Virus record (IMG/VR): IMGVR_UViG_3300011888_000003
Length of the DNA stretch: 64,000 nt
Direction: 5' to 3' (one strand)
Origin: an uncultured virus (IMG/VR IMGVR_UViG_3300011888_000003)
Lineage: Duplodnaviria > Heunggongvirae > Uroviricota > Caudoviricetes
Of this stretch, positions 1 to 14,876 are shown piece after piece. The notes under the pieces are model-generated. The model worked only from the letters and a program-made list of their open reading frames with translations, did not search any database and was not told the origin of the DNA. The stretch's first letter is position 1. Every line of letters begins with the position of its first letter. The translations under genes were made by a program, and so were the position numbers.

Positions 1-12
1 GAATCCTGCATA

Positions 13-495: not shown

Positions 496-509
496 GGGAG
501 TCTCCTTTC

Positions 510-992
510 TTAGAAGGGTTCTTGGATGGGAGTATAAGGGTCGAGTGTCTGTTTATTGACTTTGCGATAGAGTTGAAGGATGTTGTAGCGGGCGGGGCCA
601 AACTCCAGTTCAGAAAGCAGTAGCTTCTTACTATCAAGGATAGCTTCAAGTTCTGCCAAGCTCTTTATCTCGACGAGTCTATGATACATGGGATAGAAGG
701 TCGCGATTTTGTTGTACATGGCTCGAACGGAACTGAGGAGGTCTTTGCTTTGTTTGTCATTGAATGTATTATCTAAGAGACGGAAAATGACGTCATCGAG
801 TTCAGGAAGACAGTGGAGCGGGAAACCTGAATACGTATATTCATGGTGTAATAAGTAGGACTTGAGTGGGGTGAGAACGATACAGAGTGGCGTCGTGCCA
901 TCTTCTGGTTTAAGACTCATGTTCGTTGAATCGACGGAGAACAAGAGGCCTTCGCGACGCGGATGATAATAAAACTTTCCTTTTGTAATCAT
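510..992 (-). CDS. hypothetical phage protein (160 aa), C-terminus IQEPF
   Basis: ORF with AAAGGAG RBS. Confidence 0.75.
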   Translation of the reverse strand: MITKGKFYYHPRREGLLFSVDSTNMSLKPEDGTTPLCIVLTPLKSYLLHHEYTYSGFPLHCLPELDDVIFRLLDNTFNDKQSKDLLSSVRAMYNKIATFYPMYHRLVEIKSLAELEAILDSKKLLLSELEFGPARYNILQLYRKVNKQTLDPYTPIQEPF

Positions 993-1087
993 AGTTATCT
1001 CCTTTCAACAGGGGAGCCATAGTGGATGTGTCAGGTTTTTTAAAAGAACTCCATAGGGAGGCCATCGCGGATGTGTCTCGGCTAAAT

Positions 1088-1168
1088 TAAAAAAACGCCC
1101 TCCGATGCAGTCCAGGTACGAGGAGAGGGGTAGGCTCCTACAATACCTGAACTACACCGAAGGGCGTA
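1088..1168 (-). ncRNA. putative long-hairpin small RNA or extended terminator with C-rich loop
   Basis: Minus strand pairs ACGCCCUUCGG/UCGGAGGGCGU, UGUAGUUCAGGUA/UACCUGGACUGCA and AGGAG/CUCCU, then a U-run. Confidence 0.45.
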
Positions 1169-1200
1169 TATGTCCCTAAGGGTGAGTCAATGAATCAACA

Positions 1201-1230
1201 ATCAAGAAAGGAAGGCCGAAGGCCCTCCGC
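1201..1230 (-). promoter_or_regulatory. GAA-triloop hairpin element (putative phage RNAP promoter)
   Basis: ATCA-AGAAAG-GAAGGCC-GAA-GGCCCTCCGC. Confidence 0.6.
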
Positions 1231-1237
1231 ACTTGAC

Positions 1238-1828
1238 TTAGAACGGCTGGTTGTCGTCCCCTGCACCGATGATGCCTGGTACAGCTGGAGTCTCAACAGC
1301 CGGTGCAGGCGCTTGTACGCCCGCACTTTGTTGTTGCATTTGCTGGAACGCCAAGAACTGTTGGAACTGAGCCATGAGTTCAGGGGTCATACCAGCAGGC
1401 GCCACCTGTGCTTGCGCGACAGGTTGAGCCGGTGCTTGCGCCTCTGCCTGAGCAGACGCTTCACACAATTTGTGGACGTGACGAAGGATTTGCGCGCGGA
1501 TAGGACGTACGATAGAGAGGATGTCCGAATACTTCGTTTCCCCGTTCTCTTTGTACGAATCCTGTGGCACGACAAGACGTAACGAATGCCCGTCATCATT
1601 GCGGAAGACTGAGACATTGATACCGCCGACGACAGTATTCAAGAATACGTTCGCGACGACACCCTGTTTCTTCTGTGCTTCCGAGTGCGCGGCTGTTACC
1701 TTCATCGAGATGATACCGAGTTTCGCATTCGAGTCTTTGTCCGTGACGTCATCAAGACCTTTCGCGTCAGACAAATACCAAAGACGTCCAGTACCTTCTT
1801 GTTGCACGTTCGTGTTAATTTGTAGCAT
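1238..1828 (-). CDS. SpoVG/SSB-like nucleic-acid-binding protein
   Basis: Beta-rich core (LRLVVPQDSYKENGETKYSDI) reminiscent of SpoVG, a Q/A/P-rich linker and an SSB-like acidic tail DDNQPF; AGGAGG RBS. Confidence 0.55.
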   Translation of the reverse strand: MLQINTNVQQEGTGRLWYLSDAKGLDDVTDKDSNAKLGIISMKVTAAHSEAQKKQGVVANVFLNTVVGGINVSVFRNDDGHSLRLVVPQDSYKENGETKYSDILSIVRPIRAQILRHVHKLCEASAQAEAQAPAQPVAQAQVAPAGMTPELMAQFQQFLAFQQMQQQSAGVQAPAPAVETPAVPGIIGAGDDNQPF

Positions 1829-1913
1829 GTGAATTCCTCCTTTTAATGTCGCGTGGACAATATGGTTTGCCTAAGACGATGTTGAACCCTGAGTGGGCGA
1901 ACATGGTCGCTGA

Positions 1914-1978
1914 TACACCTTGCCTCATCAGACCTACGGAAGGCACCCGTAGATGACGCCCAAATGGACGTTTCGGCT
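1914..1978 (-). ncRNA. type II hammerhead ribozyme
   Basis: GCC-GAAA-CGUCC(auuu)GGGCG-UC^-AUCUACGG(gugccuu)CCGUAGGU-CUGAUGA-GGC; loop I can pair with downstream AAGGUG (pseudoknot); predicted cut between 1955 and 1954. Confidence 0.9.
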
Positions 1979-1993
1979 TGTAGAACAAAAAGA

Positions 1994-2080
1994 ATCAAAA
2001 AAAGAAGGCCGAAGGCCCTGCGCTCTTAAGGTTTTCAAGAACGCTTTTAATCATTAAAAGAAGGCCGAAGGCCCTGCGCT
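1994..2080 (-). promoter_or_regulatory. two tandem GAA-triloop hairpin elements
   Basis: ATCA-AAAAAA-GAAGGCC-GAA-GGCCCTGCGC (1994-2023) and ATCA-TTAAAA-GAAGGCC-GAA-GGCCCTGCGC (2050-2079). Confidence 0.6.
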
Positions 2081-2087
2081 TTTGGGT

Positions 2088-2294
2088 TTAAAGGGTCAGA
2101 TAGATGAATCCGACAACGAACGCGGTCATGCCTATAGAGAGGATGACGCACTCGTAGCAGTTGGTGAACGCATAACTACGTTTGACTTTATCCTTGGAAT
2201 GACGGACACGGATATATTTAAGGGTCGCGCGGAACGTCAAGGAATAGAAGAACAACAAGAAGAGAATCAAGACGGCAATGAGTACTGGAATCAT
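2088..2294 (-). CDS. small membrane protein (2 predicted TM segments)
   Basis: Two hydrophobic stretches; GGAGG RBS. Confidence 0.7.
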   Translation of the reverse strand: MIPVLIAVLILFLLFFYSLTFRATLKYIRVRHSKDKVKRSYAFTNCYECVILSIGMTAFVVGFIYLTL

Positions 2295-2303
2295 GAGTAC
2301 CTC

Positions 2304-2492
2304 CTATTGTAGGTGGAATGCTTGATAGAATAGGTAAAAGGCGAGACCGAAGAATATCATGTAACCGATGAAGTGGTCGTCGAGCCGGTTCTCCTTGTAA
2401 GATAGATATAAGAGTCCGAGACCGATGAGGAATGAGATGAAGCCGACGAAGCAGATGACGAATGCGAATTCACTGGCTGTACCTTCAAACAT
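2304..2492 (-). CDS. small membrane protein (2 predicted TM segments)
   Basis: Two hydrophobic stretches; AGGAGG RBS. Confidence 0.7.
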   Translation of the reverse strand: MFEGTASEFAFVICFVGFISFLIGLGLLYLSYKENRLDDHFIGYMIFFGLAFYLFYQAFHLQ

Positions 2493-2538
2493 GAGAATAC
2501 CTCCTAAAAGGGAGAGGGCAGGGCGACCCTCTCATGTA

Positions 2539-3123
2539 TTATGCTGTCGTTTCCGCGACAGGTGCTTCAGGTGCTGGTGTTTGCTTTGCGTCCTGTTGAC
2601 TCTTGAGGAGCTTGACGATTTCAGAGAACGATGCTTGTTGCTCTTGGAGCTGGACTTGCGTCTGTGCGAACTGCTGTTCAAGTTTGTTGAGACGCTCATC
2701 TTCGATTTCTTGTCCACCAAGGAGTTCCTTCGGTAACTGGATGTTGATGACTGGCTGAAGCTCTTCTTGTTTACGTGGGTCGACAGGTGCGCCACCGAGC
2801 ATGCGACGAGCTTTCTCCAGGATAGAACCATCATGGTACGCGGCTTCACGTTTCTCGAAGACATCGATTTGTTTATCGACGACTTTCTTCTCGCGATGGA
2901 GTCCTACCATTTCGACAGCTTTTGCATGGACGTCTGGGACTTCGAGTCCGAGCTTCTCATAGAGACCGTTGATGAGCAAAGCGTTCTCCATGTTGCTGAC
3001 GTCACTTTCGTTTTTGTGCTCCATGAACTTGTTGCCGGATACCGGAAGCATGCCTCCGAGTTTAGAACCGACTGAACGACTGCGTGGGTTATTATATTCC
3101 TCAATAAAACGTTGTGCTGACAT
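2539..3123 (-). CDS. hypothetical protein with Q/E-rich coiled coil
   Basis: 194-aa ORF with GAGGAAG RBS. Confidence 0.75.
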   Translation of the reverse strand: MSAQRFIEEYNNPRSRSVGSKLGGMLPVSGNKFMEHKNESDVSNMENALLINGLYEKLGLEVPDVHAKAVEMVGLHREKKVVDKQIDVFEKREAAYHDGSILEKARRMLGGAPVDPRKQEELQPVINIQLPKELLGGQEIEDERLNKLEQQFAQTQVQLQEQQASFSEIVKLLKSQQDAKQTPAPEAPVAETTA

Positions 3124-3154
3124 ATGAATCTTCCTCTCTAAAATAGATTGATGC

Positions 3155-3184
3155 CCTAAAAAAAGAAGGCCGAAGGCCCTCCGC
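3155..3184 (-). promoter_or_regulatory. GAA-triloop hairpin element
   Basis: CCTA-AAAAAA-GAAGGCC-GAA-GGCCCTCCGC. Confidence 0.55.
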
Positions 3185-3203
3185 CTTTAGGGGTTGACTG
3201 ATG

Positions 3204-3566
3204 TTAGACGCTAACGACTTGTTTGATACCACCGAAGCGATATCCTTGTGTACCATCTTTACGGACGTGACCATACGGCACATGGTTCAATACATCGATG
3301 ACTTCATAGTAGAGCATGCCGTCCTCTGCTTGGATAGTGGCGACGATGCTCGTATCCATGAACGGATTGACGATGGCGAACGCGTCTCCGTTCTTTAAGT
3401 CAAGGACTTGGTCGGAGGCAAGACAGAGGTCTGCTAGGATTTCATATTGCGACAGGTTCATGTCTTCAATCTTCTGGAGTGGTTTCTCAGGGATGATGAA
3501 CTTGGCGTTCATTCCGCTGACGATGACTTTGTCTTCGAACGTGTGTGCTTGAGTAGTTGGATGCAT
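3204..3566 (-). CDS. hypothetical protein
   Basis: ORF; start moved to the ATG (MHPTT) following the GAATGGAG RBS. Confidence 0.7.
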   Translation of the reverse strand: MHPTTQAHTFEDKVIVSGMNAKFIIPEKPLQKIEDMNLSQYEILADLCLASDQVLDLKNGDAFAIVNPFMDTSIVATIQAEDGMLYYEVIDVLNHVPYGHVRKDGTQGYRFGGIKQVVSV

Positions 3567-3599
3567 GATTGATTTCTCCATTCGTATTTAGATTTAGGA

Positions 3600-4130
3600 T
3601 TAGTATTGTAATGAGCTTTGTGGAACGGGATTGTCGAGGTTCTTCTGGACATATTCCTTCCACGGGAAGACGTAACCAGGTTTCTTCTTCCAGATGAGGT
3701 GCTGATAGGAATCGGTCTGTACACCGTCCCATAACCAGAGGATGGCGTCGCTCTCTCGAATCAGGATGAGGTTGCGATTATCGAGGAGCTTCTTCATCGG
3801 CTTATCTTCGTCGCGTTCCTGCATGTAGGTCACTTGCTTGGCATGTTCCAGTTGTTCACGGACATGTACCCAATCGGCGCCTTGCTTCTTACCGAAACCA
3901 GGGAAGGGAAGGATGAGGTGAATCTGCTTCTCATAGCCGTTGTGATAGAGCCACTTCATGGCACGGCAATCCCAATGGTCGGCGCAACCAATCAAGAAGG
4001 TATGCCCTTCTTTTGCTAAGACTTTCAATTGTTTGATTTGCCAATCGAAGATGTCGTCGAGATAAGGACTCTTCCGATTGTAGTAGAGATGATGGGGACG
4101 CATACGCATACCGATGATACCTATCTTCAT
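3600..4130 (-). CDS. SLOG-superfamily (YspA/DUF1273-like) protein
   Basis: MKIGIIGMR..P, FLIGCADHWD, LILPFPG and RNLILIRESDAILWLWDG follow the YspA-like pattern. Confidence 0.65.
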   Translation of the reverse strand: MKIGIIGMRMRPHHLYYNRKSPYLDDIFDWQIKQLKVLAKEGHTFLIGCADHWDCRAMKWLYHNGYEKQIHLILPFPGFGKKQGADWVHVREQLEHAKQVTYMQERDEDKPMKKLLDNRNLILIRESDAILWLWDGVQTDSYQHLIWKKKPGYVFPWKEYVQKNLDNPVPQSSLQY

Positions 4131-4444
4131 GAACCTGCACCTACCTTTTCTTCCCATGAGATAAGAAGATGAGAGGGATGCGTTTGATGGACAGTGAACC
4201 CACGATATGTCAATTGCTCCATGATAGCTTCATCGTAAGCATGAATGTTTGAGAAAAGGAATTCATAGTCAGAGAATGAGACATGATGAGAGTATAAGCC
4301 TCGTGCGGCACGTGGCATGCAATCTGCTATCATTTCTTCGGCGACATTGATGATTCTAGTATTGAGTACGGCGTCTTCATGTTGGTTCTGAAGATTCCGT
4401 TCGTTTGCCATGAAACGAAAGATTTCTGCTTCTGTAGACATCAT
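4127..4444 (-). CDS. hypothetical protein
   Basis: ORF; start placed after the GAATGGAG RBS. Confidence 0.7.
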   Translation of the reverse strand: MMSTEAEIFRFMANERNLQNQHEDAVLNTRIINVAEEMIADCMPRAARGLYSHHVSFSDYEFLFSNIHAYDEAIMEQLTYRGFTVHQTHPSHLLISWEEKVGAGS

Positions 4445-4471
4445 AGGTATCTCTCCATTCATATGAAATTT

Positions 4472-4501
4472 ATCAAGAGAAGAAGGCCGAAGGCCCTCCG
4501 C
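4472..4501 (-). promoter_or_regulatory. GAA-triloop hairpin element
   Basis: ATCA-AGAGAA-GAAGGCC-GAA-GGCCCTCCGC. Confidence 0.6.
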
Positions 4502-4503
4502 TC

Positions 4504-4794
4504 TTAATGTTTAACGACATAGATGACGCGATATGGTGCGACATCCTTGAAGTGGTGGTAGCCGAAATAGCATTGGTAACCGCATGAGTAGAAGAACAAT
4601 GAAAGGGCGAGCTCCTCTGCTGACGTGAGCTCTAGTTTAGTGACGCTTCTCGTGATGCGTGTATCATGTTGGAAGAATAAGGCGTCACGCATGTCACTTA
4701 AGATGTCTTCGATTAAGTCTTGGATGCTTGTGTTGAATTGGTTCAGTAAAGGGATAGAGTTCTCTGGTGTGAGAGAAAGCAATTTTTCGTTCAT
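4504..4794 (-). CDS. hypothetical protein
   Basis: 96-aa ORF with GAACGGAG RBS, flanked by two hairpin elements. Confidence 0.7.
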   Translation of the reverse strand: MNEKLLSLTPENSIPLLNQFNTSIQDLIEDILSDMRDALFFQHDTRITRSVTKLELTSAEELALSLFFYSCGYQCYFGYHHFKDVAPYRVIYVVKH

Positions 4795-4824
4795 AGGTAT
4801 CGCTCCGTTCGTGTTGGATTTAAA

Positions 4825-4854
4825 ATCAAGAAAAGGAGGCCGAAGGCCCTGCGC
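4825..4854 (-). promoter_or_regulatory. GAA-triloop hairpin element
   Basis: ATCA-AGAAAA-GGAGGCC-GAA-GGCCCTGCGC. Confidence 0.6.
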
Positions 4855-4856
4855 TC

Positions 4857-5153
4857 TTAAGATTGAAATTGTGCGTAATACTCTTCTTCCAGGCGTGCGA
4901 GTTCCATTGGGGATAAGACTTCAATATCAGGAAGCAAAGGCGTGAACGGGCAATTGGCGCGATATGCTAAGTGTTTCTCACAAGCCCGTGCCCGTGTGAG
5001 TAGACTGTCGAGTTTCCCACTAGGCCGAAGGCTAACGATGTCTTTATCTTTGGCGACGATTTTATTGACACATCCATTGACGAACAAAGCTTCCTGGACG
5101 AATGCTTCTGCGTAATCTGTTGGATTCTGTAATATCTCTTGATAACCGTACAT
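4857..5153 (-). CDS. hypothetical protein
   Basis: 98-aa ORF with AGGAGG RBS. Confidence 0.7.
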   Translation of the reverse strand: MYGYQEILQNPTDYAEAFVQEALFVNGCVNKIVAKDKDIVSLRPSGKLDSLLTRARACEKHLAYRANCPFTPLLPDIEVLSPMELARLEEEYYAQFQS

Positions 5154-5210
5154 GTTAACTCCTCCTTTTTAGTAGACTGACGAGACCGCTCTTAAGCTGA
5201 AGGCAAGAAG

Positions 5211-5262
5211 AAGGATATGTCCTCTTATCACTTGATATGTCAGCCAGTGGATATGTGTCCAC
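5211..5262 (-). repeat. three tandem GA-CAUA-UC mini-hairpin/palindrome motifs
   Basis: AGGATATGTCCT, TGATATGTCA and GTGGATATGTGTCCAC; related copies near 1023, 1069, 1165, 7017, 7035 and 8011. Confidence 0.55.
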
Positions 5263-5266
5263 TTAT

Positions 5267-5292
5267 AAAAAAAAGAGAGCCCGAAGGCCCTC
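5267..5292 (-). terminator. intrinsic terminator related to the hairpin element
   Basis: Minus strand GAGGGCC-UUC-GGGCUCUC followed by an 8-U run, immediately after a stop codon. Confidence 0.55.
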
Positions 5293-5623
5293 AAGGACGA
5301 TGCTGGTCAAAATGTTCTGCTAGGTCGACAATTTGTCGTTGCTCATGCAAGAGTAAGCGCTCTGTGTCTTCATAGAACTCGAAGATACGAGTGACGGCGT
5401 AATCATAGTCAGCGCCGGTATATCCGACGAGGTCAGCAATCCGTTCCGCCGTATAATACCGAATGTCTTTGCTATGCTCTCCGATGAAGTGGAAGCTAGA
5501 GACTGTAATGAACTCCTTTGTCTCAGGATGGTCCTTGTGGGCATATTGTTCAGTGAAGACCGCATTCATGGCAAGAGCTAGACGATGTGTAATGCCATTG
5601 TTTGAAAGTGGATGTGTCGGCAT
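5291..5623 (-). CDS. hypothetical protein
   Basis: 110-aa ORF with AGGAGG RBS. Confidence 0.7.
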   Translation of the reverse strand: MPTHPLSNNGITHRLALAMNAVFTEQYAHKDHPETKEFITVSSFHFIGEHSKDIRYYTAERIADLVGYTGADYDYAVTRIFEFYEDTERLLLHEQRQIVDLAEHFDQHRP

Positions 5624-5665
5624 GATGTGTCCTCCTTTAAATAAAAAAAGAGAGGCCGGAGCCCC

Positions 5666-5938
5666 TCACTGACTGAACTTAGCGTGCGTAATCATCATGT
5701 TGATATCTTTGCCTTCGAACTGATACGGGATATCGAAACCATAAGGAATCGGGTAGAACGTCGTGCCGTCGACAGAGACTTCATACATGCGTTGTCCTTC
5801 ATTGTTGAAGTGCGTCATGCGAGCTTCCTTGATGCCTTCATACAGGACACCGTCACGATAGATATCCATGTATGCTTTTGTTTCCGTTTCATGATGTAAA
5901 GGTTTGATAGTAGTAGTAGGTTGGATAATAGTGTTCAT
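5666..5938 (-). CDS. hypothetical protein
   Basis: 90-aa ORF, GGAGG RBS, start overlaps the upstream stop. Confidence 0.7.
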   Translation of the reverse strand: MNTIIQPTTTIKPLHHETETKAYMDIYRDGVLYEGIKEARMTHFNNEGQRMYEVSVDGTTFYPIPYGFDIPYQFEGKDINMMITHAKFSQ

Positions 5939-6210
5939 GCTGTTGCCTCCTCTAAAATGTCGAATGAAATGATGCGTTTGCTTTCAATACATGATTCATT
6001 GTATTCCGCGACGGCCTCGTCAAGAGACTTATAGCGTGTATCGACGTTTCCTGCAATTGAACGACGACTGAGGACACGCTTCTCGAAATCGAAGTCGTTG
6101 ATGCATGAGATATTGTTATTAACGAATACCCCCCGTTGTCCGTTTTTAAGCAAAACAGCAACGAGAGGACGGTCGACGATAATACTATAGTGCATATCAA
6201 AGTATCTCAT
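5935..6210 (-). CDS. hypothetical protein
   Basis: 91-aa ORF, translationally coupled to its neighbours. Confidence 0.7.
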   Translation of the reverse strand: MRYFDMHYSIIVDRPLVAVLLKNGQRGVFVNNNISCINDFDFEKRVLSRRSIAGNVDTRYKSLDEAVAEYNESCIESKRIISFDILEEATA

Positions 6211-6386
6211 TACATCGTCCCCGTTTCTTTTAAGATAGCATGCGTGCGAAGACGACTTGCCTTCGCTTGTTCGATGAGGCGTTCGCGTTCTTGACGGTCA
6301 CGTTCCGCAATCGTGATACCTGCGACTACCATAGAGAAGGCGTATAATAACCAAGCTTTACCGATAAATGTTAATGTACGTTTCAT
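6210..6386 (-). CDS. small membrane-anchored protein
   Basis: MKRTLTFIGKAWLLYAFSMVVAG hydrophobic segment; GAATGGAG RBS. Confidence 0.6.
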   Translation of the reverse strand: MKRTLTFIGKAWLLYAFSMVVAGITIAERDRQERERLIEQAKASRLRTHAILKETGTM

Positions 6387-6417
6387 GAGTTTCTCTCCAT
6401 TCGTATAAGGTTTTAGT

Positions 6418-6600
6418 TTAGAAGGTGATATTAACGACAAAGACTAAGATGCTGACAGTACAGAAGAAGATGACGCCCGCGCCGAGCATATCACGTTTCT
6501 CTTTGAAGAAATACATGGTAAAGCCACTCCCTACGACTACGATGAGTAGAAGTAGGAAGTAGAAGAAACAATAGGTCATGAAATCGATTAACGTCCACAT
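6418..6600 (-). CDS. small membrane protein (2 predicted TM segments)
   Basis: Hydrophobic 60-aa ORF with AAGGAG RBS. Confidence 0.65.
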   Translation of the reverse strand: MWTLIDFMTYCFFYFLLLLIVVVGSGFTMYFFKEKRDMLGAGVIFFCTVSILVFVVNITF

Positions 6601-6932
6601 TTGCGACTCTCCTTTAGTTGGCGGTCAGCCACTTTGATTTCATCAGCAAGGGAAGGAGCAGTCGTCATGAGACGATACTCCAATTGAACTTGTGATGCGG
6701 CACAACGTAACAATTCGCGTTCAATCCAGAAGACCTTTTGCTGATAGGCTACTTTGAGCTTTTGCTTGATGGACGCTGAACCGTCACGGTGCTTGATGAT
6801 ATGTGGCGTCTTCGCTTCGAGGATGATGCCCGTACGCACCTGTTTGTGTTCCGGTGCCTGATGCTCCGCTTCATCATAGCGGAAAGGCTTATCCATATTT
6901 GCTTCACGTTCGATTTGTTGATGTACTGACAT
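6588..6932 (-). CDS. hypothetical protein
   Basis: ORF; start placed after the GAATGGAG RBS. Confidence 0.7.
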   Translation of the reverse strand: MSVHQQIEREANMDKPFRYDEAEHQAPEHKQVRTGIILEAKTPHIIKHRDGSASIKQKLKVAYQQKVFWIERELLRCAASQVQLEYRLMTTAPSLADEIKVADRQLKESRKCGR

Positions 6933-6961
6933 TTGAATCGCTCCATTCATATTAGATTATA

Positions 6962-6991
6962 ATCAGACAAAGAAGGCGGAACGCCCTGCGC
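6962..6991 (-). promoter_or_regulatory. GAA-triloop hairpin element (covariant stem)
   Basis: ATCA-GACAAA-GAAGGCG-GAA-CGCCCTGCGC. Confidence 0.6.
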
Positions 6992-7065
6992 CCTTATCTT
7001 TTAAGCCGAAGGCGCTGGATATGTCCGATGCCCTGAATATGTCAATGCATAAAAAAGAAACACGC

Positions 7066-7323
7066 TCATAGACGAATCGAGCGTGCCCCGTTGAATACCA
7101 ATACATGGTCATTGCAGTCGCCACCACAATCACAGTCGTGACCAAGAAGACCTTGTGTATCGAACCCAAGAGCCTGGAACCCTTGAGCAAGCGTCATACG
7201 CCCGTAGACTTTTTTAGCTAAACGATTCGAGAGAACGAACCGGTCTTTCTTCCCAATGCCTAAGTCAGAAAGCAAAGGGCGGATAGTACGTGCCAATGCT
7301 TTACGTGCAGATTTGTTTGTCAT
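7066..7323 (-). CDS. hypothetical protein with HDCDCGGDCNDH Cys/His cluster
   Basis: 85-aa ORF with AAGGAGG RBS. Confidence 0.7.
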   Translation of the reverse strand: MTNKSARKALARTIRPLLSDLGIGKKDRFVLSNRLAKKVYGRMTLAQGFQALGFDTQGLLGHDCDCGGDCNDHVLVFNGARSIRL

Positions 7324-7373
7324 GAGTAAGCCTCCTTGAATGTGTATGTAAATAAAAAAGAAAGACGCCCCGA

Positions 7374-7745
7374 TTAAAACGGGACGTCGTAAGAACCACG
7401 TTCATTATTTAAATCAGCCCCACGAAGGTGGGATTTCAAACGCATTGCGTCAATCCCCTCAAGAACAGGGAAAGAAGAATCGCCTGGGTCAACAGGCGTG
7501 AAACGAGCGCAAGATGCCAAGATATCGTATGTTGCGTCAATAGCTTGTGTCTGCGGTACGTCCCATGCATCAGCAGGATTCAGTAATTCCGCCATGTATT
7601 GCAGATAATAAGGCGTATTGCCCATTTCCTCTGCATGGAAGACGAAACTGTGTACGAAGACGCAATCCTCAGAGATAGCGCCGCGCTTGAGCAATTTGTT
7701 CATAGATAGAGCAAGACCGTGTAACATCTCAGTATTAGGTAACAT
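7374..7745 (-). CDS. hypothetical protein, C-terminus YDVPF
   Basis: ORF downstream of a hairpin element; exact start uncertain. Confidence 0.65.
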   Translation of the reverse strand: MLPNTEMLHGLALSMNKLLKRGAISEDCVFVHSFVFHAEEMGNTPYYLQYMAELLNPADAWDVPQTQAIDATYDILASCARFTPVDPGDSSFPVLEGIDAMRLKSHLRGADLNNERGSYDVPF

Positions 7746-7770
7746 TAGAACCATTCCCTTCGATATTAGA

Positions 7771-7799
7771 TTCACGTACAGGTGGCCAAGGGCCCTATG
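7771..7799 (-). promoter_or_regulatory. hairpin element variant (AAG loop)
   Basis: TTCA-CGTACA-GGTGGCC-AAG-GGCCCTATG. Confidence 0.45.
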
Positions 7800-8186
7800 A
7801 AGTTGTGTGTAACATTAAGTATTTGCTATGTGCCGGAGGTTGGGTAAGCCTCCGCGCTACATAACACCTACTATCTATGACCGGCACACCCCTGTGCGTC
7901 GCATAGAATACGAATCCCCTATCCGGTAGGACAGAAAGGAGACCTGATGTCGTGTTCCTACCAAGTAGGAATTACGACCGTCTTTTCACCAACCCCCATC
8001 AGGGTAAAGTTGGATATGTCCAAAGACGGAAGTGCTCATGCTCTGATGACGCAATCCCCCTACTGGACAGTAGGAAGAAAGCGAGAGCCTTCACCGATAC
8101 TCTGGTGCAATTCAATGAGGTGTGAAGGCTCTATCCCGAAGGAACAAGAGAGCGTCTGGGTGGAATTAGATTCCCCTCATTGAATC
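7800..8186 (-). ncRNA. putative large structured ncRNA (about 385 nt) with a 5' pseudoknot
   Basis: Two crossing perfect 11-bp helices (8175-8185/8110-8120 and 8122-8132/8084-8094) plus several more helices; no credible minus-strand CDS; begins at the predicted start site of a hairpin element. Confidence 0.7.
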
Positions 8187-8286
8187 AAAAGCAGAAGGCC
8201 GAAGGCCCTATGCTCTTTTGGTACTGATTCGCCTCCTCCAAGAAGAAGGAGACGATATCACAAACAGGTGGCGGAACGCCCTGCGC
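8184..8286 (-). promoter_or_regulatory. two GAA-triloop hairpin elements upstream of the ncRNA
   Basis: ATCA-AAAGCA-GAAGGCC-GAA-GGCCCTATGC (8184-8213) and ATCA-CAAACA-GGTGGCG-GAA-CGCCCTGCGC (8257-8286). Confidence 0.6.
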
Positions 8287-8294
8287 CCTTGCCC

Positions 8295-8531
8295 TTAAAA
8301 CGGTAAGCCGTTGTCTTCTGCTAAGACGAGAGGCTTACGCTTCAACTGTGCCGCAATGCGACGGTCATCGGCCTCGAACGCCAATCGTACCCGTGCCTCG
8401 GAAATCTCACGACGACGGTCGCTGTACATTCCCTGAAGCTGATGGGTCGACTGCTCCTCATACCAATGACAGGGATACGGTAGTACCAGTTTCAATTGTT
8501 GAATCAGTGTAGTGCGTGACATATTCGTCAC
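8295..8531 (-). CDS. hypothetical protein, C-terminus DNGLPF
   Basis: 78-aa ORF with AAGGAG RBS; GTG start or the downstream ATG. Confidence 0.65.
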   Translation of the reverse strand: MTNMSRTTLIQQLKLVLPYPCHWYEEQSTHQLQGMYSDRRREISEARVRLAFEADDRRIAAQLKRKPLVLAEDNGLPF

Positions 8532-8549
8532 TCCTTCCTATGTGTTTAT

Positions 8550-8579
8550 TTCCAACGAAGCGGGCGGAACGCCCTACGC
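8550..8579 (-). promoter_or_regulatory. GAA-triloop hairpin element
   Basis: TTCC-AACGAA-GCGGGCG-GAA-CGCCCTACGC. Confidence 0.5.
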
Positions 8580-8647
8580 TCTTGCAGTGTGAGAAACAAT
8601 AGCCGAAGGCCCACCTTAGATAGGCAGGCCGTTCGACAAAGCGTGGC

Positions 8648-9991
8648 TCAGTTTGTAACACCTGCACGCTGTTTAGCTGTAATCTCTGTCATGTTGACAG
8701 GATTGTAGTCATGAGAAGCAGGGAACTGTTTCTGCACGACTTCTTGCCCGATACGACGAGTAGCAAGTAATGACCATGGGCAGATGTTGACTTGTGCACC
8801 ACGGAGTTTCTTGTACAGACGTGTAGCGACATCTTCTTTGCCATGTGGCATGAAGCGGATGACGTTGTCAGCGCCTTGTACAGCGGCTTTGCGAAGCTCA
8901 TAAGCATTACCATTGACCTCGATGATAGCGTCAGCCATCGAGCGAATAGCAGAGCTCATACGAGCAGGAGAGAAGATGTTACGCGCCTTCTCTTCTTCGA
9001 GCGTATCGCAATACTTTTGGAAGTGCTGTTTGTTCGTGAAAAGAATCAATTTGACATTAGGATGCACCTTCTTGATTTCTTTCCAAACAAACGGAATCGC
9101 AAACACTTCTAAGCCATTGAACTCTCCGACATGGAACGTATCCACCCCACGTTGAATCATACCAAGCATCGTCATGTGAAGCGCATGTGCAACCTCTTTC
9201 ATGAAGACGCCTGTCTGATGATGGTGTGAGAGACGACCGCTGTTGAAGACCGAGCTGAGCTCAGTAGGTGCGGCGATGACGGCTACATTGTTCGCTTTAG
9301 CGACTGTGACAGGTTTAGAGACCTGTTTCACTTCCTCCTTCACCTCCACTGGAGTGTCTTGTTTGACGGGCTCCTTGACTTCTTCCTTGACTGATGCGAC
9401 CTCTTCTTTGATGACAGGATTCTTTGCATAAGAAGCAATCAAATCATCCATTGACTCTTCGCTTGAAGCACCAGGGATTTTGACTTTGTCGAGGATAGAC
9501 AACGGCTTCTTCTCAACGACAGGTGTTTCGACAGGTGCTTGTTTGCTAAGCTCTTGTGAAAGAGCGTTCACAGCACCAGCATCTTGCATGTCTTGCATGT
9601 TTGACTCAACATCTTCGTTGCGTTCTTCTTTCTCGATGACTTCATCTTCGTCTTCATCGTCTTCGTCTAACTCATCGTAGAAGTTTTTGACTTCCATCGT
9701 TTTCATAGACTCTTTGAGCTCATCGATGACGACTTTGTTGCGAGCTTCTTGCGAAAGCTCAGCTTCTTCTTCTGAATCAGCGTCCGACATGTCTTCTTCC
9801 ATCTGTGCAAAAGCAGACAAGTTCTCTGCTTCTTCGTTGACTTCAACTTCAGTGACTTCGACTTCAGTGACAGTAGTGACGACAGATTGTGCTTTGAACG
9901 TTTCAAACATCTCGTTCAACTTAGCAGTTGTTTCATTCACGAGGTTTACTTGTGCTTGCATCATTTCGATAGTTACTGTTACGTTTGTCAT
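8648..9991 (-). CDS. acidic low-complexity N-terminus fused to a divergent SLOG/YspA-like domain
   Basis: E/D-rich first half; C-terminal RGVDTFHVGEFNGLEVFA...IKKVHPNVKLILF...ADAIIEV resembles DUF1273. Confidence 0.55.
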   Translation of the reverse strand: MTNVTVTIEMMQAQVNLVNETTAKLNEMFETFKAQSVVTTVTEVEVTEVEVNEEAENLSAFAQMEEDMSDADSEEEAELSQEARNKVVIDELKESMKTMEVKNFYDELDEDDEDEDEVIEKEERNEDVESNMQDMQDAGAVNALSQELSKQAPVETPVVEKKPLSILDKVKIPGASSEESMDDLIASYAKNPVIKEEVASVKEEVKEPVKQDTPVEVKEEVKQVSKPVTVAKANNVAVIAAPTELSSVFNSGRLSHHHQTGVFMKEVAHALHMTMLGMIQRGVDTFHVGEFNGLEVFAIPFVWKEIKKVHPNVKLILFTNKQHFQKYCDTLEEEKARNIFSPARMSSAIRSMADAIIEVNGNAYELRKAAVQGADNVIRFMPHGKEDVATRLYKKLRGAQVNICPWSLLATRRIGQEVVQKQFPASHDYNPVNMTEITAKQRAGVTN

Positions 9992-10068
9992 GTTAATTTT
10001 CCCCTTTCAAAGGAAAGAGCCCCTACTTTGTAGGAGCCCTTGAGAGTATTTGTATTACTTATCGGGTA

Positions 10069-11910
10069 TTACTTGCAGAACATTGTTGTTCCATCACATG
10101 AGAAGACATCTACGTCTTCAACCATCTCATCAGATGTCATGAGAAGGTAACGGTTACCATCGTTAAGGAGGTATCCGTTCGTGCCACCATCTTCGACGAG
10201 GAATTCGAATTCAAGACCAAGGATGACATCTGCACCGTGATGAGCGACGAGTTCACGACCATCTTGGTTGAGCTCGAATGCATAGAACTGTTGTGATGCG
10301 ACAGCCTCCATGACTTCTTCCTCTTGACGTGCCTCTTCGAGCGTTGAAGAAGCAATTGCTTCTCCGTTGAGCAAGAAGTCTTTCAACTTGATAGAAACAC
10401 CATCTTTACCAATCTGTGTTTCGTTGTACTCTTGGATGACAGCCGTATAGAACATATCATCAGAGACAAGTGGGAACGTCGAAGCAGATTTCGCATCGAT
10501 TTTGACTGGGAAGAATCCAGCTTCGAACAAGAGACCCATCGCATCTCCTTGACGAACGATTTGAACGATGTCGCCTACTCCATGCTTCTTCACTTGTTTC
10601 TTCGTGAAGAGTTCAGCAAGTCCTTCCGCACGTGCTGTAGCTGAATCGTGCGTGAAGAAGACGAACTGTGCTTCCGTTGGAGCATGGTAAACGAACGGTG
10701 TATCACTTTCGTTTGCAAGCTCCATGAGTGCCATCTTGATGCCTTTCATGAAGACGTCCCAAAGAATCGAGAAGTTCTTTGAGTCTTTCGCACCATCGTA
10801 TTGTTTGATATACGTGGCAATCGTGATTTTGAGCAATGCGTTCTCTTCGCCATGAGACTGAGCGAATTCGACGAGACCTGCTTGTTTGTGCCCTTCGATA
10901 GCTTTCGCATAGTCCTCATTTGCGAGACCGAGCACATACTTGTCGTGGTCCGTCATCGTTTTGTTGAGGAGAGATTTCTTGTCTCCTGTTGACATGTAGT
11001 CCGCAGTCCACATCTCAAGACCAGTCGACCAAGCATAGCGGTCTTCTTCACGCATACCGCTTTTGATGAACGCCTCAGAGTTCATGAGGTTGCGTTCACC
11101 GAGTGCTTTGATGGCTTTCTTTTCGAACCCTTTGCGGAGTTCGTCAATCTTCTTGAACTCAGAGATAGCTTTTGAAATCCAAGAAGAGCCAATAACTGCG
11201 CCATCTTTCATTTCTTCTTCTGTCATACCAAGCTTCTCTTTGACAGTCGTCATTTCCTCGATGAGGTTTTGGTGAATACCGAAAGCGGCAGAGCTGAATC
11301 CAGCAATCTTGTAGACTTGACGTGCGAAGTCTGCTGATGCTTGGACAGAAGAGTTACGATGCGTAACATTAATACCTGACGTCATTTTCTGACGAGCCAA
11401 GTATTCTGGTTTAGCTTGTGATACTTTCAACTCTGTATCCATGATGCTTTCTTTCTCTTTGATGATAGCGACTTTCGCCTCTACATCAGCAAGAACGTTA
11501 CGGATTTTCCGTGACTGTTGAATTTCAACAATCAACGTTGAAGATACGAACGGGCCGAGTGTCACTGAGTACGTGTACTCGACCTTCTTCTTATCGACTG
11601 TCAATCCTTCCCACATGACGATAAGAGTGATGTCTTCTTTGACGACTGTTAAGCCTTTGTTGAACGGCTCCTCAATCAATTCATAGAACGCTTGAAGCTC
11701 TTTCTCTGACGATGCGTGAAGCATGACGAAGTCTGGACCGAACTTCGCCTTGAGTGAAGCGACAGCACGCTTCACGAGGATTGCGTCGACATCAGTCAAC
11801 TCAGATGCGTTGACTTGGAAGCTATCGACGGCAAATGCTTTGCCCATGATAGCTGTGAGCTTCTCCTCCGTTGTTAATTCTTTCTTCTTACTGTTTGTTT
11901 GTTCTGACAT
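10069..11910 (-). CDS. hypothetical 613-aa protein next to the RNA polymerase gene (possible accessory subunit)
   Basis: Long ORF with AAAGGAG RBS; function inferred from position only. Confidence 0.75.
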   Translation of the reverse strand: MSEQTNSKKKELTTEEKLTAIMGKAFAVDSFQVNASELTDVDAILVKRAVASLKAKFGPDFVMLHASSEKELQAFYELIEEPFNKGLTVVKEDITLIVMWEGLTVDKKKVEYTYSVTLGPFVSSTLIVEIQQSRKIRNVLADVEAKVAIIKEKESIMDTELKVSQAKPEYLARQKMTSGINVTHRNSSVQASADFARQVYKIAGFSSAAFGIHQNLIEEMTTVKEKLGMTEEEMKDGAVIGSSWISKAISEFKKIDELRKGFEKKAIKALGERNLMNSEAFIKSGMREEDRYAWSTGLEMWTADYMSTGDKKSLLNKTMTDHDKYVLGLANEDYAKAIEGHKQAGLVEFAQSHGEENALLKITIATYIKQYDGAKDSKNFSILWDVFMKGIKMALMELANESDTPFVYHAPTEAQFVFFTHDSATARAEGLAELFTKKQVKKHGVGDIVQIVRQGDAMGLLFEAGFFPVKIDAKSASTFPLVSDDMFYTAVIQEYNETQIGKDGVSIKLKDFLLNGEAIASSTLEEARQEEEVMEAVASQQFYAFELNQDGRELVAHHGADVILGLEFEFLVEDGGTNGYLLNDGNRYLLMTSDEMVEDVDVFSCDGTTMFCK

Positions 11911-12056: not shown

Positions 12057-14876
12057 TTAAACGAATAGACGTACAGGGAAGAAGTGCTCTGATTTTGCAT
12101 GATACAAGAGCTCTTCTGGTGTTGGGTTTGTTTCAAACACATCGACGATGTGGCTGAGTGGCTCATCAAATGCTCCACCGTGTTTCGCCTCATCAATCGC
12201 CCAACGGACGATACATACCAACCAGTTAGCGATGTCTTCATAGTTACCGTACTCAACAGCAAGCAGGTAACGTTGGTGCGTCATTTCGAGCTTTTCTTGT
12301 GCATTCTCAGAGACAGCGATATCCTCTGAAAGCACGATGATGTCACGTTGGATATCAAGTAAGATATCTTCAACGTTCATCAAGCGGTTCGTCCACTTAC
12401 CGATAGACGAGACTTTCGCTGTCGCAACGATGTGAGCCGCCGCCATACGGTTGAAGACGTAGTACACGAGCTTCGCACGTTCTTCGTCGAGAACGTCTGC
12501 TTTATCGAACTTCAGTGTCCACGTGCGTGAACCGTTGACAACTTCTTGTTCGACGTTAAGCTTGTTGGCTTCGATGAAATCACCAACAAGAGCAAAGACG
12601 TCTGGTGCTTCTTCAGGACGCGCCCATGGGCAACCTCCTTCAACTTCTCCGTTTTCATCTTTGAAGAAGTCGAGCATTTTAACTTTATTTTTGAAGCTGT
12701 TGACAACATACTGGTTGAAGATAACCAAGCAAGTGTCACCGTCAAAGTCAGCGCCAGACATCGCTTCTGTCGTCATATCGACAGAGTTGAACAAGACCAA
12801 CCCTTTGAAGAATCCAGCTTTCGCCGCTTCGACGTAATAGCGCATTGCTTCTTCGTTCGCAAGCGTATCAACAGCGAGAACTTTACGGACTTCCTCTTTC
12901 TTGAGGATTGGGTAACGGACAGCGAGGAAGTAACCACGACGCAAGTTCCCTTTGCTGTCGACGACAATCGCACAACCAGCAGGGATAGAATCAACGTACT
13001 TGACGACTGGTTCTTTCCCATCGAACAGTTCATCGACAACTCCTTGGATGGCTTTCACGACCATGAAGATATCGAAGCCCATGTGACGCATTTTAGCGTC
13101 CTTGACCAAGATGCCACCTTTCTTGATTTTCTCAAGTGGCTTCGTTAACAAGTTTTGAACTTTACGTTTGACTGCCATATCCTTGATGATTTCAGGATTC
13201 GTTGAGAGCAAATTCTTGATGTCGATTAAGACATCATCCATCATGACATTCTTGTCGATTTCTTCTTCTTCGACCTCGACTTCCACTTCTTCTGCGTCTG
13301 CATCTTCATCAGCAGAAGTATCGCCTTTCTCCATCTTGTCGTAGTAGTCTGACTCGACGTTGAGGAGTTTGAGTGCCATCTTGCCGTCAAACGGTGCAGA
13401 CTTGACGTAAGATGCTGTGAACATGTTGAGAAGCTTCATGTTCTTTTGTGGGACGTCCATCGCGAGCAATGCTTGCGTTGCGACGAGTGCCATATCCTCT
13501 TCCTCTTCCATCCGTGATGCTTGGACGATAGAGAGTTTGAACGACCCATCAAGAAGCGATGGGAGAAGGTCGAGCTTCATTGCTCCATCCATGAAGACCA
13601 TGTCCGCTCCAGTCATCTGACGGAGTTTGTACGTGCCGTAAGCGAACGGCTTAAGACCATTCGCACCACGAGCTTGTACGGACTGGCCTTCGTCTTTCAT
13701 GTTGCCTTCCTGTTTGAGGTAGTAAGCTACCTCTTCAGAGAAGAGGATACCGCCATCCGTCATGTTCTTGACGAATTCGATATCTTCTTCGATGAGTTTC
13801 GGCATTTCAGCGCGTTGAACGATGACTGCACGTTCTGTTACCGTACGCATCATATCACCAATCAAGATGATACGACGTTTCCGGCCGTTGAGCATTTTGT
13901 GCTTAGACTGCAACACAGTGACGTGTTCTTTCTTGCCAACACCATTCGTGTAGTCACCCTCACGGATGATTTCCATCTCACCGAACAATGCTTCCATTAC
14001 CGTTGAAAAGCGTGACCCTGAAGCCGCCATATCCAGACGTTTCGGGTCCTTATCGATTTTGAACTTCCACTTGCCATCTTGCTCTCCACCGTAGACAGAG
14101 AGTTCGAATGACGCATTGAACCGGCTGTATACAGCAGTGACACGAAGATTGTGGTCTTTAAGCTTCTGCTCAAGAGTCGGACGGTTCGCGCGAGCAAACT
14201 CATAGAATGCCGCTTCCCCTTTCCGAGTTTGGGCTGGTGACGCCGAATTTGGCGTATAGAGAATCAATTCTTGCCCGTTGTGAAGTGCAATACCATTCAA
14301 AATGAATTTTTGAACGATTTTGGCAAGTTCGAGCAATGACATCTTGAAGAGCTTCGCGTACTGCTTTGTGAGCATGAACGCGAGTTCTTCAACGACTGGC
14401 ACAACACGGAAGTTGAGTTGCTTCGTGTTGTCGAACGCTTTAACGACAGACGTTTCAATGACTTTGCGGTCATTGTTTTGACGCGTGTACATTTCGAAAT
14501 CGTTGAACTCACACAAGTCACGGACAAGATGGTTTTCCGAGTTGCGTTGAACGAGCGTGTTCGAAAGTAAACGAGAAGTCTTAACATCAACGAGTGAATG
14601 CATAACGCCCGCTTCATCTTTTTCGAATCCACGGATGTAGATGAACGGCGTTACGTTATCACGTAATACGTATCCATCTCCTTTAAGCGTCAACATTTTA
14701 CGAAGAGCCGCGACACGTTGTGCTTTCTCTCCTTCAATTAAGACTGTCTCGCCGTTAACGATAAATGCCAGCACATATTCGCGTGCTGACAAGTTGAATG
14801 ATGGTGCCTTTGGTCCGTGATGACGAACCTTAATCTCTGCGTTTACTGCCTTTTTGAAACTGTTTGATACTGCCAT
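12057..14876 (-). CDS. YonO-like / cellular-RdRP-like single-subunit two-barrel RNA polymerase (939 aa)
   Basis: Ordered motifs SPAQTRKG, TDGGILFSEE, SVQARG..GLKP, AVRYP, MSGADFDGD (12735-12749), IGKWTN and AIDEAKHG. Confidence 0.88.
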   Translation of the reverse strand: MAVSNSFKKAVNAEIKVRHHGPKAPSFNLSAREYVLAFIVNGETVLIEGEKAQRVAALRKMLTLKGDGYVLRDNVTPFIYIRGFEKDEAGVMHSLVDVKTSRLLSNTLVQRNSENHLVRDLCEFNDFEMYTRQNNDRKVIETSVVKAFDNTKQLNFRVVPVVEELAFMLTKQYAKLFKMSLLELAKIVQKFILNGIALHNGQELILYTPNSASPAQTRKGEAAFYEFARANRPTLEQKLKDHNLRVTAVYSRFNASFELSVYGGEQDGKWKFKIDKDPKRLDMAASGSRFSTVMEALFGEMEIIREGDYTNGVGKKEHVTVLQSKHKMLNGRKRRIILIGDMMRTVTERAVIVQRAEMPKLIEEDIEFVKNMTDGGILFSEEVAYYLKQEGNMKDEGQSVQARGANGLKPFAYGTYKLRQMTGADMVFMDGAMKLDLLPSLLDGSFKLSIVQASRMEEEEDMALVATQALLAMDVPQKNMKLLNMFTASYVKSAPFDGKMALKLLNVESDYYDKMEKGDTSADEDADAEEVEVEVEEEEIDKNVMMDDVLIDIKNLLSTNPEIIKDMAVKRKVQNLLTKPLEKIKKGGILVKDAKMRHMGFDIFMVVKAIQGVVDELFDGKEPVVKYVDSIPAGCAIVVDSKGNLRRGYFLAVRYPILKKEEVRKVLAVDTLANEEAMRYYVEAAKAGFFKGLVLFNSVDMTTEAMSGADFDGDTCLVIFNQYVVNSFKNKVKMLDFFKDENGEVEGGCPWARPEEAPDVFALVGDFIEANKLNVEQEVVNGSRTWTLKFDKADVLDEERAKLVYYVFNRMAAAHIVATAKVSSIGKWTNRLMNVEDILLDIQRDIIVLSEDIAVSENAQEKLEMTHQRYLLAVEYGNYEDIANWLVCIVRWAIDEAKHGGAFDEPLSHIVDVFETNPTPEELLYHAKSEHFFPVRLFV

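Follow-up and report, generated by a model that had tools for sequence, protein, structure and literature searches.

Here, we report an element on the minus strand (8186–7806) of an uncultured virus genome (IMG/VR record IMGVR_UViG_3300011888_000003), of which a stretch of 64,000 nucleotides (nt), hereafter the window, was analyzed; this element is probably a new structured phage RNA. It sits among the early genes of an uncultured Bacillus-type phage, does not code for protein, and holds two perfect 11-base pair (bp) helices whose strands are interleaved. Its fold is conserved between two natural alleles, the long-range strands at its core are its most conserved part, and the cassette is lineage-specific. 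The explanation we favor is that the element is a non-coding RNA cassette of the early small-gene array, which would be transcribed with, or like, its neighbors from a slot bounded by a repeat called D1, as the neighboring gene cassettes are. The fold would consist of a near-invariant core of two interleaved helix pairs (A/B and S1/S2, of which S1 covaries) and of peripheral hairpins which vary in sequence and length while their pairing is kept, and the element would act as a folded RNA, most plausibly as a ligand of a host or phage protein in early infection, or as its decoy or scaffold. For this statement as a whole (transcribed, folded around the A/B and S1/S2 core, and acting as a folded RNA in early infection) we estimate a probability of roughly 45%; transcription, the transcript ends, the joint formation of both pseudoknots, and action in trans are the parts that we infer.

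A string search recovered every helix listed by the initial annotation, which had proposed a large pseudoknotted non-coding RNA, at its coordinates on the minus strand; all element coordinates below refer to this strand. Helix A pairs AUUCAAUGAGG (8185–8175) with CCUCAUUGAAU (8120–8110), and helix B pairs AGAGCCUUCAC (8132–8122) with GUGAAGGCUCU (8094–8084). Both are perfect over 11 bp, their A-B-A′-B′ order is real, and a single base (8121) lies between B and A′. Two perfect helices of at least 11 bp were found in 0 of 2000 dinucleotide-preserving shuffles of 7786–8190 (one such helix in 20 of 2000), and the interleaved-helix observation is therefore not due to chance. For the stretch as a whole, the folding energy is −156 kcal/mol (z = −3.9), which none of 100 shuffles reached.

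Only two true relatives of the element exist in the collections searched, IMGVR_UViG_3300011874_000001 and JACCDR010020947.1; they are nearly identical to each other, and therefore we have two effective alleles only. The other allele (L001) is 76% identical to the window, 90 of the 382 aligned columns within the element being different. The fold is kept against this heavy sequence change, which very probably reflects an RNA structure under purifying selection; we consider the fold conserved because of its strand-biased stability, a substitution null model, compensated pairs, and the exact deletion of a 15-nt hairpin tip. On the gene-sense strand the z-scores are −3.9 (window) and −6.5 (other allele), compared with −3.15 and −2.95 on the antisense strand, and the consensus fold energy is −122.9 kcal/mol in sense vs −97.8 kcal/mol in antisense, where six broken pairs are A-C or C-A, i.e., G-U on the sense strand. 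In the null model, the observed substitutions were placed on random columns of the same starting base. Pseudo-alleles derived from the window fold at −117.4 ± 6.2 kcal/mol vs −151.2 kcal/mol for the real one, and those made in the reverse direction fold at −124.8 ± 6.3 kcal/mol vs −147.3 kcal/mol, with 0 of 300 as low in either case. Covariation among homologs, by which the initial annotation had proposed to check the fold, is present as seven doubly changed, still-paired positions in the local hairpins and S1 (one in P3, two in S1, two in the middle hairpins, and two in the 3′ hairpin) and is absent from A, B, and S2; the corresponding number is 0–2 in six slid controls and on average 3.1 in shuffles, 2 of 500 of which reach seven. 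In both relatives, the alignments place a 15-nt deletion that removes exactly the tip of the 7949–7978 hairpin. The folding, null-model, and compensation tests thus bear out that the minus strand carries an RNA-like structure under selection.

Helices A and B had been picked by the initial annotation before any relatives were known. Their strands carry one substitution in 44 positions vs 89 in 338 elsewhere in the element (Fisher p = 5.4e-5), or, with the strands of helix S2 added, one in 58 positions (p = 8.7e-7); counted as pairs, 22 of 23 in A and B never vary, and 29 of 30 if S2 is added. That the long-range strands are the most constrained while the local hairpins drift is the pattern expected of a folded RNA with a functional core. 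A and B show no covariation because their strands are nearly invariant.

Whether these strands form pseudoknots was evaluated from order, loops, and energies. The interleaved order fits an H-type pseudoknot, with loops of 42, 1, and 15 nt for A/B and about 18, 11, and 28 nt for S1/S2, which should be sterically feasible. A plus B amounts to −62.5 kcal/mol before any pseudoknot penalty, compared with −56.9 kcal/mol for the nested fold, i.e., a difference of 5.6 kcal/mol for this first pseudoknot (PK1); S1 plus S2 amounts to −35.3 vs −31.5 kcal/mol in the window and −32.0 vs −24.4 kcal/mol in L001, a gain of 3.8–7.6 kcal/mol. The usual pseudoknot penalty is 7–10 kcal/mol. The A/B pseudoknot of the original proposal is plausible: its A-B-A′-B′ order and its loops speak for it, while covariation in A and B is missing, 22 of the 23 pairs being fixed, and the nested fold is about as stable. 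There are also signs of alternative pairing. The 5′ domain contains two copies each of GCUCU and AGAGC, arranged so that either 1:2 plus 3:4 or 2:3 pairing is possible, and three one-sided changes in the relative lengthen P3 at its base, the part that shares bases with the 3′ strand of B. CUGAUG (8002–7997), for which two possible CAUCAG partners had been taken as a hint of switching, indeed has both in the window (8048–8043 and 7949–7944); in both relatives the upstream partner is changed to CAUGAG, which breaks the pairing with CUGAUG and lengthens P3, and the downstream partner is kept. The data fit two static pseudoknots or a switch alike.

Helix A (8109–8186) includes, besides the 11 bp given above, a G8186-U8109 pair, i.e., 12 bp in total; it encloses H1 (GGAA 8174–8171/UUCC 8165–8162) and H2 (UCC-UUCG-GGA, 8143–8134), has a pairing probability of 0.99 in all three sequences, and is invariant in 12 of 12 pairs. 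Helix B (8084–8132) crosses helix A to give candidate pseudoknot 1; 10 of its 11 pairs are invariant and one changes from G-C to G-U. Part of its 3′ strand also belongs to the base of P3, and GCUCU 8153–8149 is an alternative partner of its 5′ end. P3 (8040–8088) is a long hairpin with the tip CCUACUGUCCAGUAGG (8074–8059), whose stem has internal loops in the window and runs uninterrupted over 21 bp in the relatives; one of its pairs is compensated (C-G to U-A), and several one-sided changes retain or add pairs. Helix S1 (7978–8029) pairs CCGUCUUU (8029–8022) with AAAGACGG (7985–7978) and encloses GGACAUAUCC (8021–8012) and CCUGAUG (8003–7997). Its two covarying pairs read C-G/U-G/U-A across the three sequences and U-A/C-G. 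Helix S2 (7943–8003), CCUGAUG 8003–7997 with CAUCAGG 7949–7943, crosses S1 as candidate pseudoknot 2; all seven pairs are invariant, and a local ACCC...GGGU hairpin competes with it.

Further hairpins follow toward the 3′ end. The hairpin at 7949–7978, whose tip is the part deleted in the relatives, consists of GUCGU 7978–7974/ACGAC 7953–7949 around UUCCUAC 7971–7965/GUAGGAA 7961–7955 with a UUG loop. The two middle hairpins (7873–7939) are at 7939–7916 and at 7910–7873 (CUAUG/CAUAG around GCACA/UGUGC). They belong to the most diverged part of the element (52% column identity over 7900–7999), yet both alleles form hairpins here, with one compensated pair in each; the 7910–7873 stretch aligns uncertainly, and in the second hairpin, 7 of 15 pairs deviate through unpaired cells only. 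The 3′ long hairpin (7819–7871), UGUUAUGU...ACAUAGCA around CGGAGG 7854–7849/CCUCCG 7839–7834 with a 9-nt loop, has 19 pairs with 100% of cells paired, two of them compensated (G-C to A-U and C-G to U-A). The last segment, AAUACUUAAUGUUACAC (7807–7823), copies codons 4–9 of the downstream gene (7736–7719). In all three sequences, one copy of this direct repeat, AATACT(TA/GAG)ATGTTACAC at 7823–7807 and 7736–7719, closes the structured region on its 3′ side, and such a 17-nt copy of downstream-gene codons at the end of the element suggests past cassette turnover there.

As the initial annotation had supposed, the region is non-coding: there is no open reading frame (ORF) conserved between the alleles, and six of the seven internal indels between them are not multiples of three. 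Searching the region by tblastn with 13 neighboring or paralogous proteins gave noise only (best E 0.024). A small-ORF reading was rejected since no ORF is common to the alleles, and a pseudogene reading was rejected since the tblastn protein similarity is noise only. The element lies between genes, from the stop of the upstream ORF 8531–8295 to the ribosome-binding site and ATG 7745 of the next gene, and interrupts neither. It also stands outside known RNA families. Rfam gave no match at E ≤ 10 on either strand of 7600–8450. The other allele L001 gave four Rfam matches (E 1.3–8.1), on the opposite strand and far below the gathering scores, of which His_leader (E = 3.5) is the only leader. The absence of tRNA, tmRNA, and RNase P noted initially holds, with 0 genes from ARAGORN in the 64 kb and none from Rfam. 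ROOL, GOLLD, raiA, OLE, and HEARO have no Rfam match at E ≤ 10 in the window and are not among the L001 matches, and the group I intron model RF00028 has no match at E ≤ 10 in the window element or the other allele. The element is not described in the literature consulted, including passages of PMC12474458.

Several observations weigh against the favored explanation. Once the usual penalty is charged, nested folds are about as stable as the pseudoknotted ones, and the invariance of A, B, and S2 proves neither a global fold nor the pseudoknots. All covariation lies in the local hairpins and S1, while A, B, and S2 do not vary, and each covariation rests on a single event, as there are two effective alleles only. 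If the minimum-energy fold of the window alone is imposed on the other allele, 23 changed pairs are retained and 20 are broken; the broken pairs are due partly to the poorly alignable 7910–7873 stretch and partly to a minimum-energy fold that is not the true one. A sigma-70-type scan found no promoter in 8186–8300, a terminator-like hairpin lies just upstream, and the 3′ hairpin has no U-tract; the RNA may therefore be no more than the 5′ part of the next mRNA. Lastly, nothing in the sequence points to a partner or an activity.

To place the element among its neighbors, the D1 repeat has to be considered. D1 is an element of about 41 nt with the minus-strand consensus AAGAGCGCAGGGCCTTCGGCCTTCTTTTTTGATT, present in at least 10 copies in 1–8600 after nearly every small gene (1239–1199, 2032–1992, 2088–2048, 3193–3153, 4510–4470, 4863–4823, 7000–6960, 8222–8182, 8295–8255, and 8588–8548). 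It resembles an intrinsic terminator, with a 6-bp GC-rich hairpin and then a U-run, and most copies are followed within 25–45 nt by a ribosome-binding site and an ATG, i.e., by a short conserved leader. For transcription past so many D1 copies, read-through, processing, or a phage-specific promoter overlapping D1 are candidates. The copy at 8182–8222 (85% to the family) has a terminator-like hairpin (8209–8195) and the tail CUGCUUUUGA, and ends exactly at the start of helix A, its final GAUUC running into the helix. Upstream of it, and separated by a stand-alone 11-bp hairpin (8229–8255, UCGUCUCCUUC/GGAGGAGGCGA), is a degenerate copy (8255–8295; 68% to the reference copy) with a GGCG-UUC-CGCC hairpin that lacks the U-tract and is followed by CCACCTGTTTGTGATATCG. 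The stand-alone hairpin is 100% identical in the relatives, and the 8223–8256 stretch folds at −18.2 kcal/mol (z = −4.65; 0 of 200 shuffles as good). On the other side of the element, 7765–7805 is again a degenerate D1-like element; its GGCC-CUU-GGCC hairpin (7794–7784) lacks a U-tract and is weak (4 bp, −7.3 kcal/mol, z = −0.18), and after the element comes the short leader of the next gene. The repeat tool does not list this element; it and the 8255–8295 copy were aligned to the other D1 copies by eye. With the same D1 element at both sides, the structured stretch occupies a slot bounded as the protein cassettes are. D1-type hairpins also occur in L029 (16119–21420), a relative whose polymerase is only 42% identical.

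The tandem promoters that the initial annotation had assigned to the element (CCACCTGT...ATATCG, at 8271–8255 and 7785–7761) do not hold: both are degenerate D1 copies without the U-run, and we rejected the motif as a promoter for this reason. Over 5000–11000, the sigma-70-type scan returned four promoter-like sites vs a shuffle mean of 8.3. Inspection by eye gave no usable −35 for a reading of GGACATATCC as an internal promoter. The motif recurs in non-coding sequence of the early array, on the strand of the genes, at 8021–8012, 7026–7017, 5222–5213, and, with one mismatch, 1175–1166, and with up to one mismatch it has 11 matches in the window vs 3.0 expected; at 7045–7017 it stands 16 nt past a perfect TTGACA. 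In L029, ACATATCC is found between two hairpins upstream of the homologous gene, at about 17580–17590. GGACATATCC may be a promoter −10-like element or a protein-binding hairpin.

L029 is a syntenic distant relative found by polymerase search (the 42% identical polymerase mentioned above), in which homologs of the 613-, 447-, 78-, 123-, and 110-amino acid (aa) proteins are kept in order. Between its homologs of the 78-aa and 123-aa genes, which flank the element in the window, there are three ordinary protein genes and no long non-coding gap. Two of these three carry the N-terminal motif of the 123-aa protein as judged by eye, and BLASTP found no match between them. The downstream-gene homolog has no more than the D1 hairpin and a short leader in front of it, and L029 gives no match to R1, a covariance model built on the 5′ domain. 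The element thus does not travel with the downstream gene, whose L029 homolog is without it. In the window, the downstream gene keeps a D1-like element and a leader between itself and the structure. The short leader in L029 and the retained D1-like element and leader in the window favor a lineage-specific cassette with an RNA in the place of an ORF over a leader owned by the gene. Co-transcription with the next gene is nevertheless likely because the structure does not end in a U-tract terminator, and a search for an intrinsic terminator there gave none, the 7794–7784 hairpin being 4 bp without a U-tract.

This brings up the possibility of a long cis-acting 5′ leader or a conformational switch for the downstream gene (7745–7374), in which the interleaved helices would be alternatives: GCUCU 8153–8149 with AGAGC 8132–8128, helix B, and GCUCU 8088–8084 with AGAGC 8044–8040 would exchange and set read-through, stability, or translation. 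The missing U-tract terminator between structure and gene (with the 7794–7784 hairpin at z = −0.18), the terminator-like D1 upstream of the structure, and the divergence island (see below) that reaches the first bases of the gene all agree with a leader, as does the 1:2/2:3/3:4 order of the two GCUCU and two AGAGC motifs in the 5′ domain. A switch would also account for the near-isoenergetic nested and crossing folds, for the invariance of bases, expected if they serve two partners, and for the three one-sided changes by which the P3 base is lengthened in the other allele to rival helix B. However, the alternative pairings have no terminator or start-site sequestering helix to control, Rfam recognizes no known aptamer, and the leaders of other array genes are about 25–45 nt long; the L029 homolog manages with an ordinary short leader after the D1 hairpin only, and the window gene has the same D1-like element and leader of its own between itself and the structure. 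We consider a leader of the next gene less likely than a folded RNA in its own right and, in either the leader or the switch form, rather unlikely.

Similarly unlikely, in our opinion, is that the region is a run of independent hairpins, partly derived from cassette boundaries, which would sit between early transcription units as an insulator (transcriptional or against RNA decay), processing site, or stabilizer. Covariation is limited to local hairpins plus one helix with a 52-nt span, three further hairpins precede the region, and other slots carry hairpins as well, e.g., 1160–1090 at z = −6.9. Moreover, H2 has CCUUCGG in common with the D1 core, the D1 tail already contains the beginning of the helix A 5′ strand, and AAUCUAAU of H1 recurs in two gene leaders. 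Such a run would not, however, make the long-range strands A, B, and S2 rather than the local hairpins the most conserved part, nor give the two perfect 11-bp long-range helices that are seen in 0 of 2000 shuffles; the repeat tool reports no D1 copy inside 7806–8181, and a length of about 400 bases is far above the roughly 40 nt found between other genes.

A DNA-level element, i.e., a replication origin, a packaging or terminal-repeat boundary, or a recombination site, is very improbable. In favor of it are the two perfect, invariant inverted repeats (A and B), the recombination mosaic patch formed by the slot, and, in Bacillus phage 0305phi8-36, the position of the upstream-gene homolog next to the right terminal repeat boundary. 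Against this, the sense strand out-folds the antisense strand in both alleles and in the consensus, 11 pairs pass through G-U states that would be mismatches in DNA, with interleaved arms separated by 54 and 27 nt the repeats do not resemble protein-binding palindromes, and neither iterons nor an AT-rich stretch is present (GC content 0.49–0.51). A decaying remnant of one or more paralogous small genes without present function, to which the protein genes of L029 in this position (including downstream-gene paralogs) and the 17-nt copy of downstream-gene codons 4–9 at the 3′ end might point, is already disfavored and the least probable of all, given no residual protein similarity, a folding stability retained through 90 substitutions (0 of 300), compensated pairs, and a strongly conserved core.

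Going beyond the favored explanation of a folded RNA cassette, one could propose a new class of large phage RNA with an invariant double-pseudoknot core (A/B, S1/S2) and a defined three-dimensional fold, a swappable 'RNA gene' in a host-takeover array whose role in early infection would be that of a ribozyme, or of a decoy capturing a protein of host or phage (e.g., an RNase, RNA polymerase, or a defense sensor). We regard this as a speculative proposal with low odds.

Among known systems, the element is closest in its working to the large 'ornate' RNAs (ROOL, GOLLD, raiA, OLE, HEARO), and it is a member of none. Many ROOL and GOLLD copies are phage-borne. Like the ornate RNAs, the element is several hundred nt long, multi-domain, and phage-borne, with candidate pseudoknots, a conserved core, and variable stems; unlike them, it has no Rfam match at E ≤ 10, no tRNA genes nearby, and three copies in one narrow phage lineage. 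A group I intron core has the topology P3 ... P7-J7/3-P3′...P8...P7′. The A/B order with its 1-nt junction, and a small hairpin before the 3′ strand of B, mirrors this P3-P7 topology (RF00028), but the sizes and junctions of the helices depart from the intron consensus; the element differs by its perfect 11–12-bp helices and its intergenic site, and it has no room for J8/7 and no domain of P4-P6 size. Against the RF00028 model, which the element does not match, the two true introns of the window score 88.4 and 57.6 bits. The RNase III sites of T7 and the early-mRNA processing sites of SP82 and SPO1 are conserved inter-cistronic hairpins of phage early regions, and D1 likewise repeats after almost every small early gene; by this analogy, the structured RNA could be released through termination or processing of transcripts at D1. 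In those phages every slot has protein genes, whereas here one slot has a 0.4-kb RNA structure, and D1 is terminator-like. The pRNA of the phi29 family is a structured non-coding RNA among Bacillus phage early genes. The element is likewise structured and among early genes of a Bacillus-type phage; in contrast to pRNA, it has no Rfam match, is about twice the size, and shows no sign of the pRNA helix and loop layout, and this phage has an ordinary large terminase and portal.

To our knowledge, few large structured phage RNAs have been described, and none has a settled function. The present element is a candidate structured RNA outside the known classes, for which the evidence of selection is decent and the distribution very narrow. 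It indicates that a slot in a phage early small-gene array can hold an RNA structure instead of a protein gene. If the element binds a host factor or is catalytic, it would be an RNA-based tool by which phages take over their hosts; as a leader or an insulator, it would be an unusually elaborate one. The two natural alleles, which differ at a quarter of positions and keep the fold, provide ready-made compensatory variants.

The narrow distribution follows from several searches. Viral contigs were scanned with DNA patterns, with the flanking proteins, and with a polymerase alignment, and metagenomes and genomes were scanned as well. The DNA-pattern and flanking-protein scans of viral contigs found only IMGVR_UViG_3300011874_000001 as a true relative, and the polymerase-alignment scan added distant polymerase relatives, including L029, that are without the element. 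In the metagenome scan, one of three matches is a true relative, and the sole match of the genome scan is due to chance. A blastn search of 50,697 phage records gave no match to the element. Five mutually identical, unrelated loci (L017 and L019–L022) were also matched by the gapped core pattern. Applied to the window, the relative, the whole of 0305phi8-36, and six polymerase-relative loci, the R1 model gave no further copy; one 16-bit match in L033 was spurious on inspection. Closer protein homologs do exist, at 72% identity for the 78-aa protein and 60% for the polymerase, each on a 7,847-nt contig, possibly the same one, and a 92% identical polymerase is encoded on a contig of 29,583 nt. 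Compared with the relative over 8.4 kb, the window is 97–100% identical in most 100-nt bins, and the slot of the element is a divergence island of 52–86% identity, reaching from the D1 copy to just within the next gene. Further islands of 45–87% identity (5300–5600, 9300–9500, 9800–9900, and 10800–11100) make for a patchy mosaicism within the early genes.

The slot itself is the largest non-coding gap of the minus-strand (leftward) array of small early genes, 519 bases from the stop of ORF 8531–8295 to the GTG 7775 that opens the next reading frame; the likely start of this downstream gene is ATG 7745, not GTG 7775. The upstream gene (8295–8531, minus strand) encodes 78 aa, or probably 75 aa from an ATG start, and its product is a homolog of Bacillus phage 0305phi8-36 gp100 (ORF100; 39% identity at 72% query coverage by tblastn), with 57% identity to its counterpart in L029. 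The right terminal repeat boundary of 0305phi8-36 adjoins that homolog. The downstream gene (7374–7745, minus strand) encodes 123 aa from ATG 7745 without a family match, and is 39% identical to the L029 homolog. With the downstream protein, the 447-aa protein, and the polymerase as tblastn queries, no cultured relative was found. The phage origin of the stretch assumed at the outset is well founded: window proteins match a portal, a major head protein, a tail sheath, and a large terminase, i.e., those of a myophage, and group I introns are present.

Some other features of the window are worth recording. Two group I introns are located on the plus strand in the large-terminase region (23380–23963, 88.4 bits, and 25280–25626, 57.6 bits), and an endonuclease ORF (24509–25387; PHROG endonuclease E = 4e-60, with a weaker HNH match) begins between both introns and reaches about 100 nt into the second. 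A 939-aa ORF (12057–14876, minus strand) has a weak match to an RdRP/YonO-type two-barrel polymerase (Pfam E = 1.2e-4, under the cut-off); this YonO-like protein has nine homologs at 44–99% identity in the protein collection, and a DFDGD motif is invariant in their alignment. A repeat of about 32 nt with a CCAG-N-CTGG hairpin is found upstream of three larger early genes (11957–11926, 15398–15367, and 16141–16110) and is a regulatory class different from D1. Another slot of the early array, a 240-nt non-coding one, holds, after a D1 copy, a near-perfect 30-bp hairpin followed by seven U (1160–1090, minus strand; −52.5 kcal/mol, z = −6.9, 0 of 200 shuffles as good), which is a candidate for a small RNA, a strong terminator, or a double-strand-RNase substrate.

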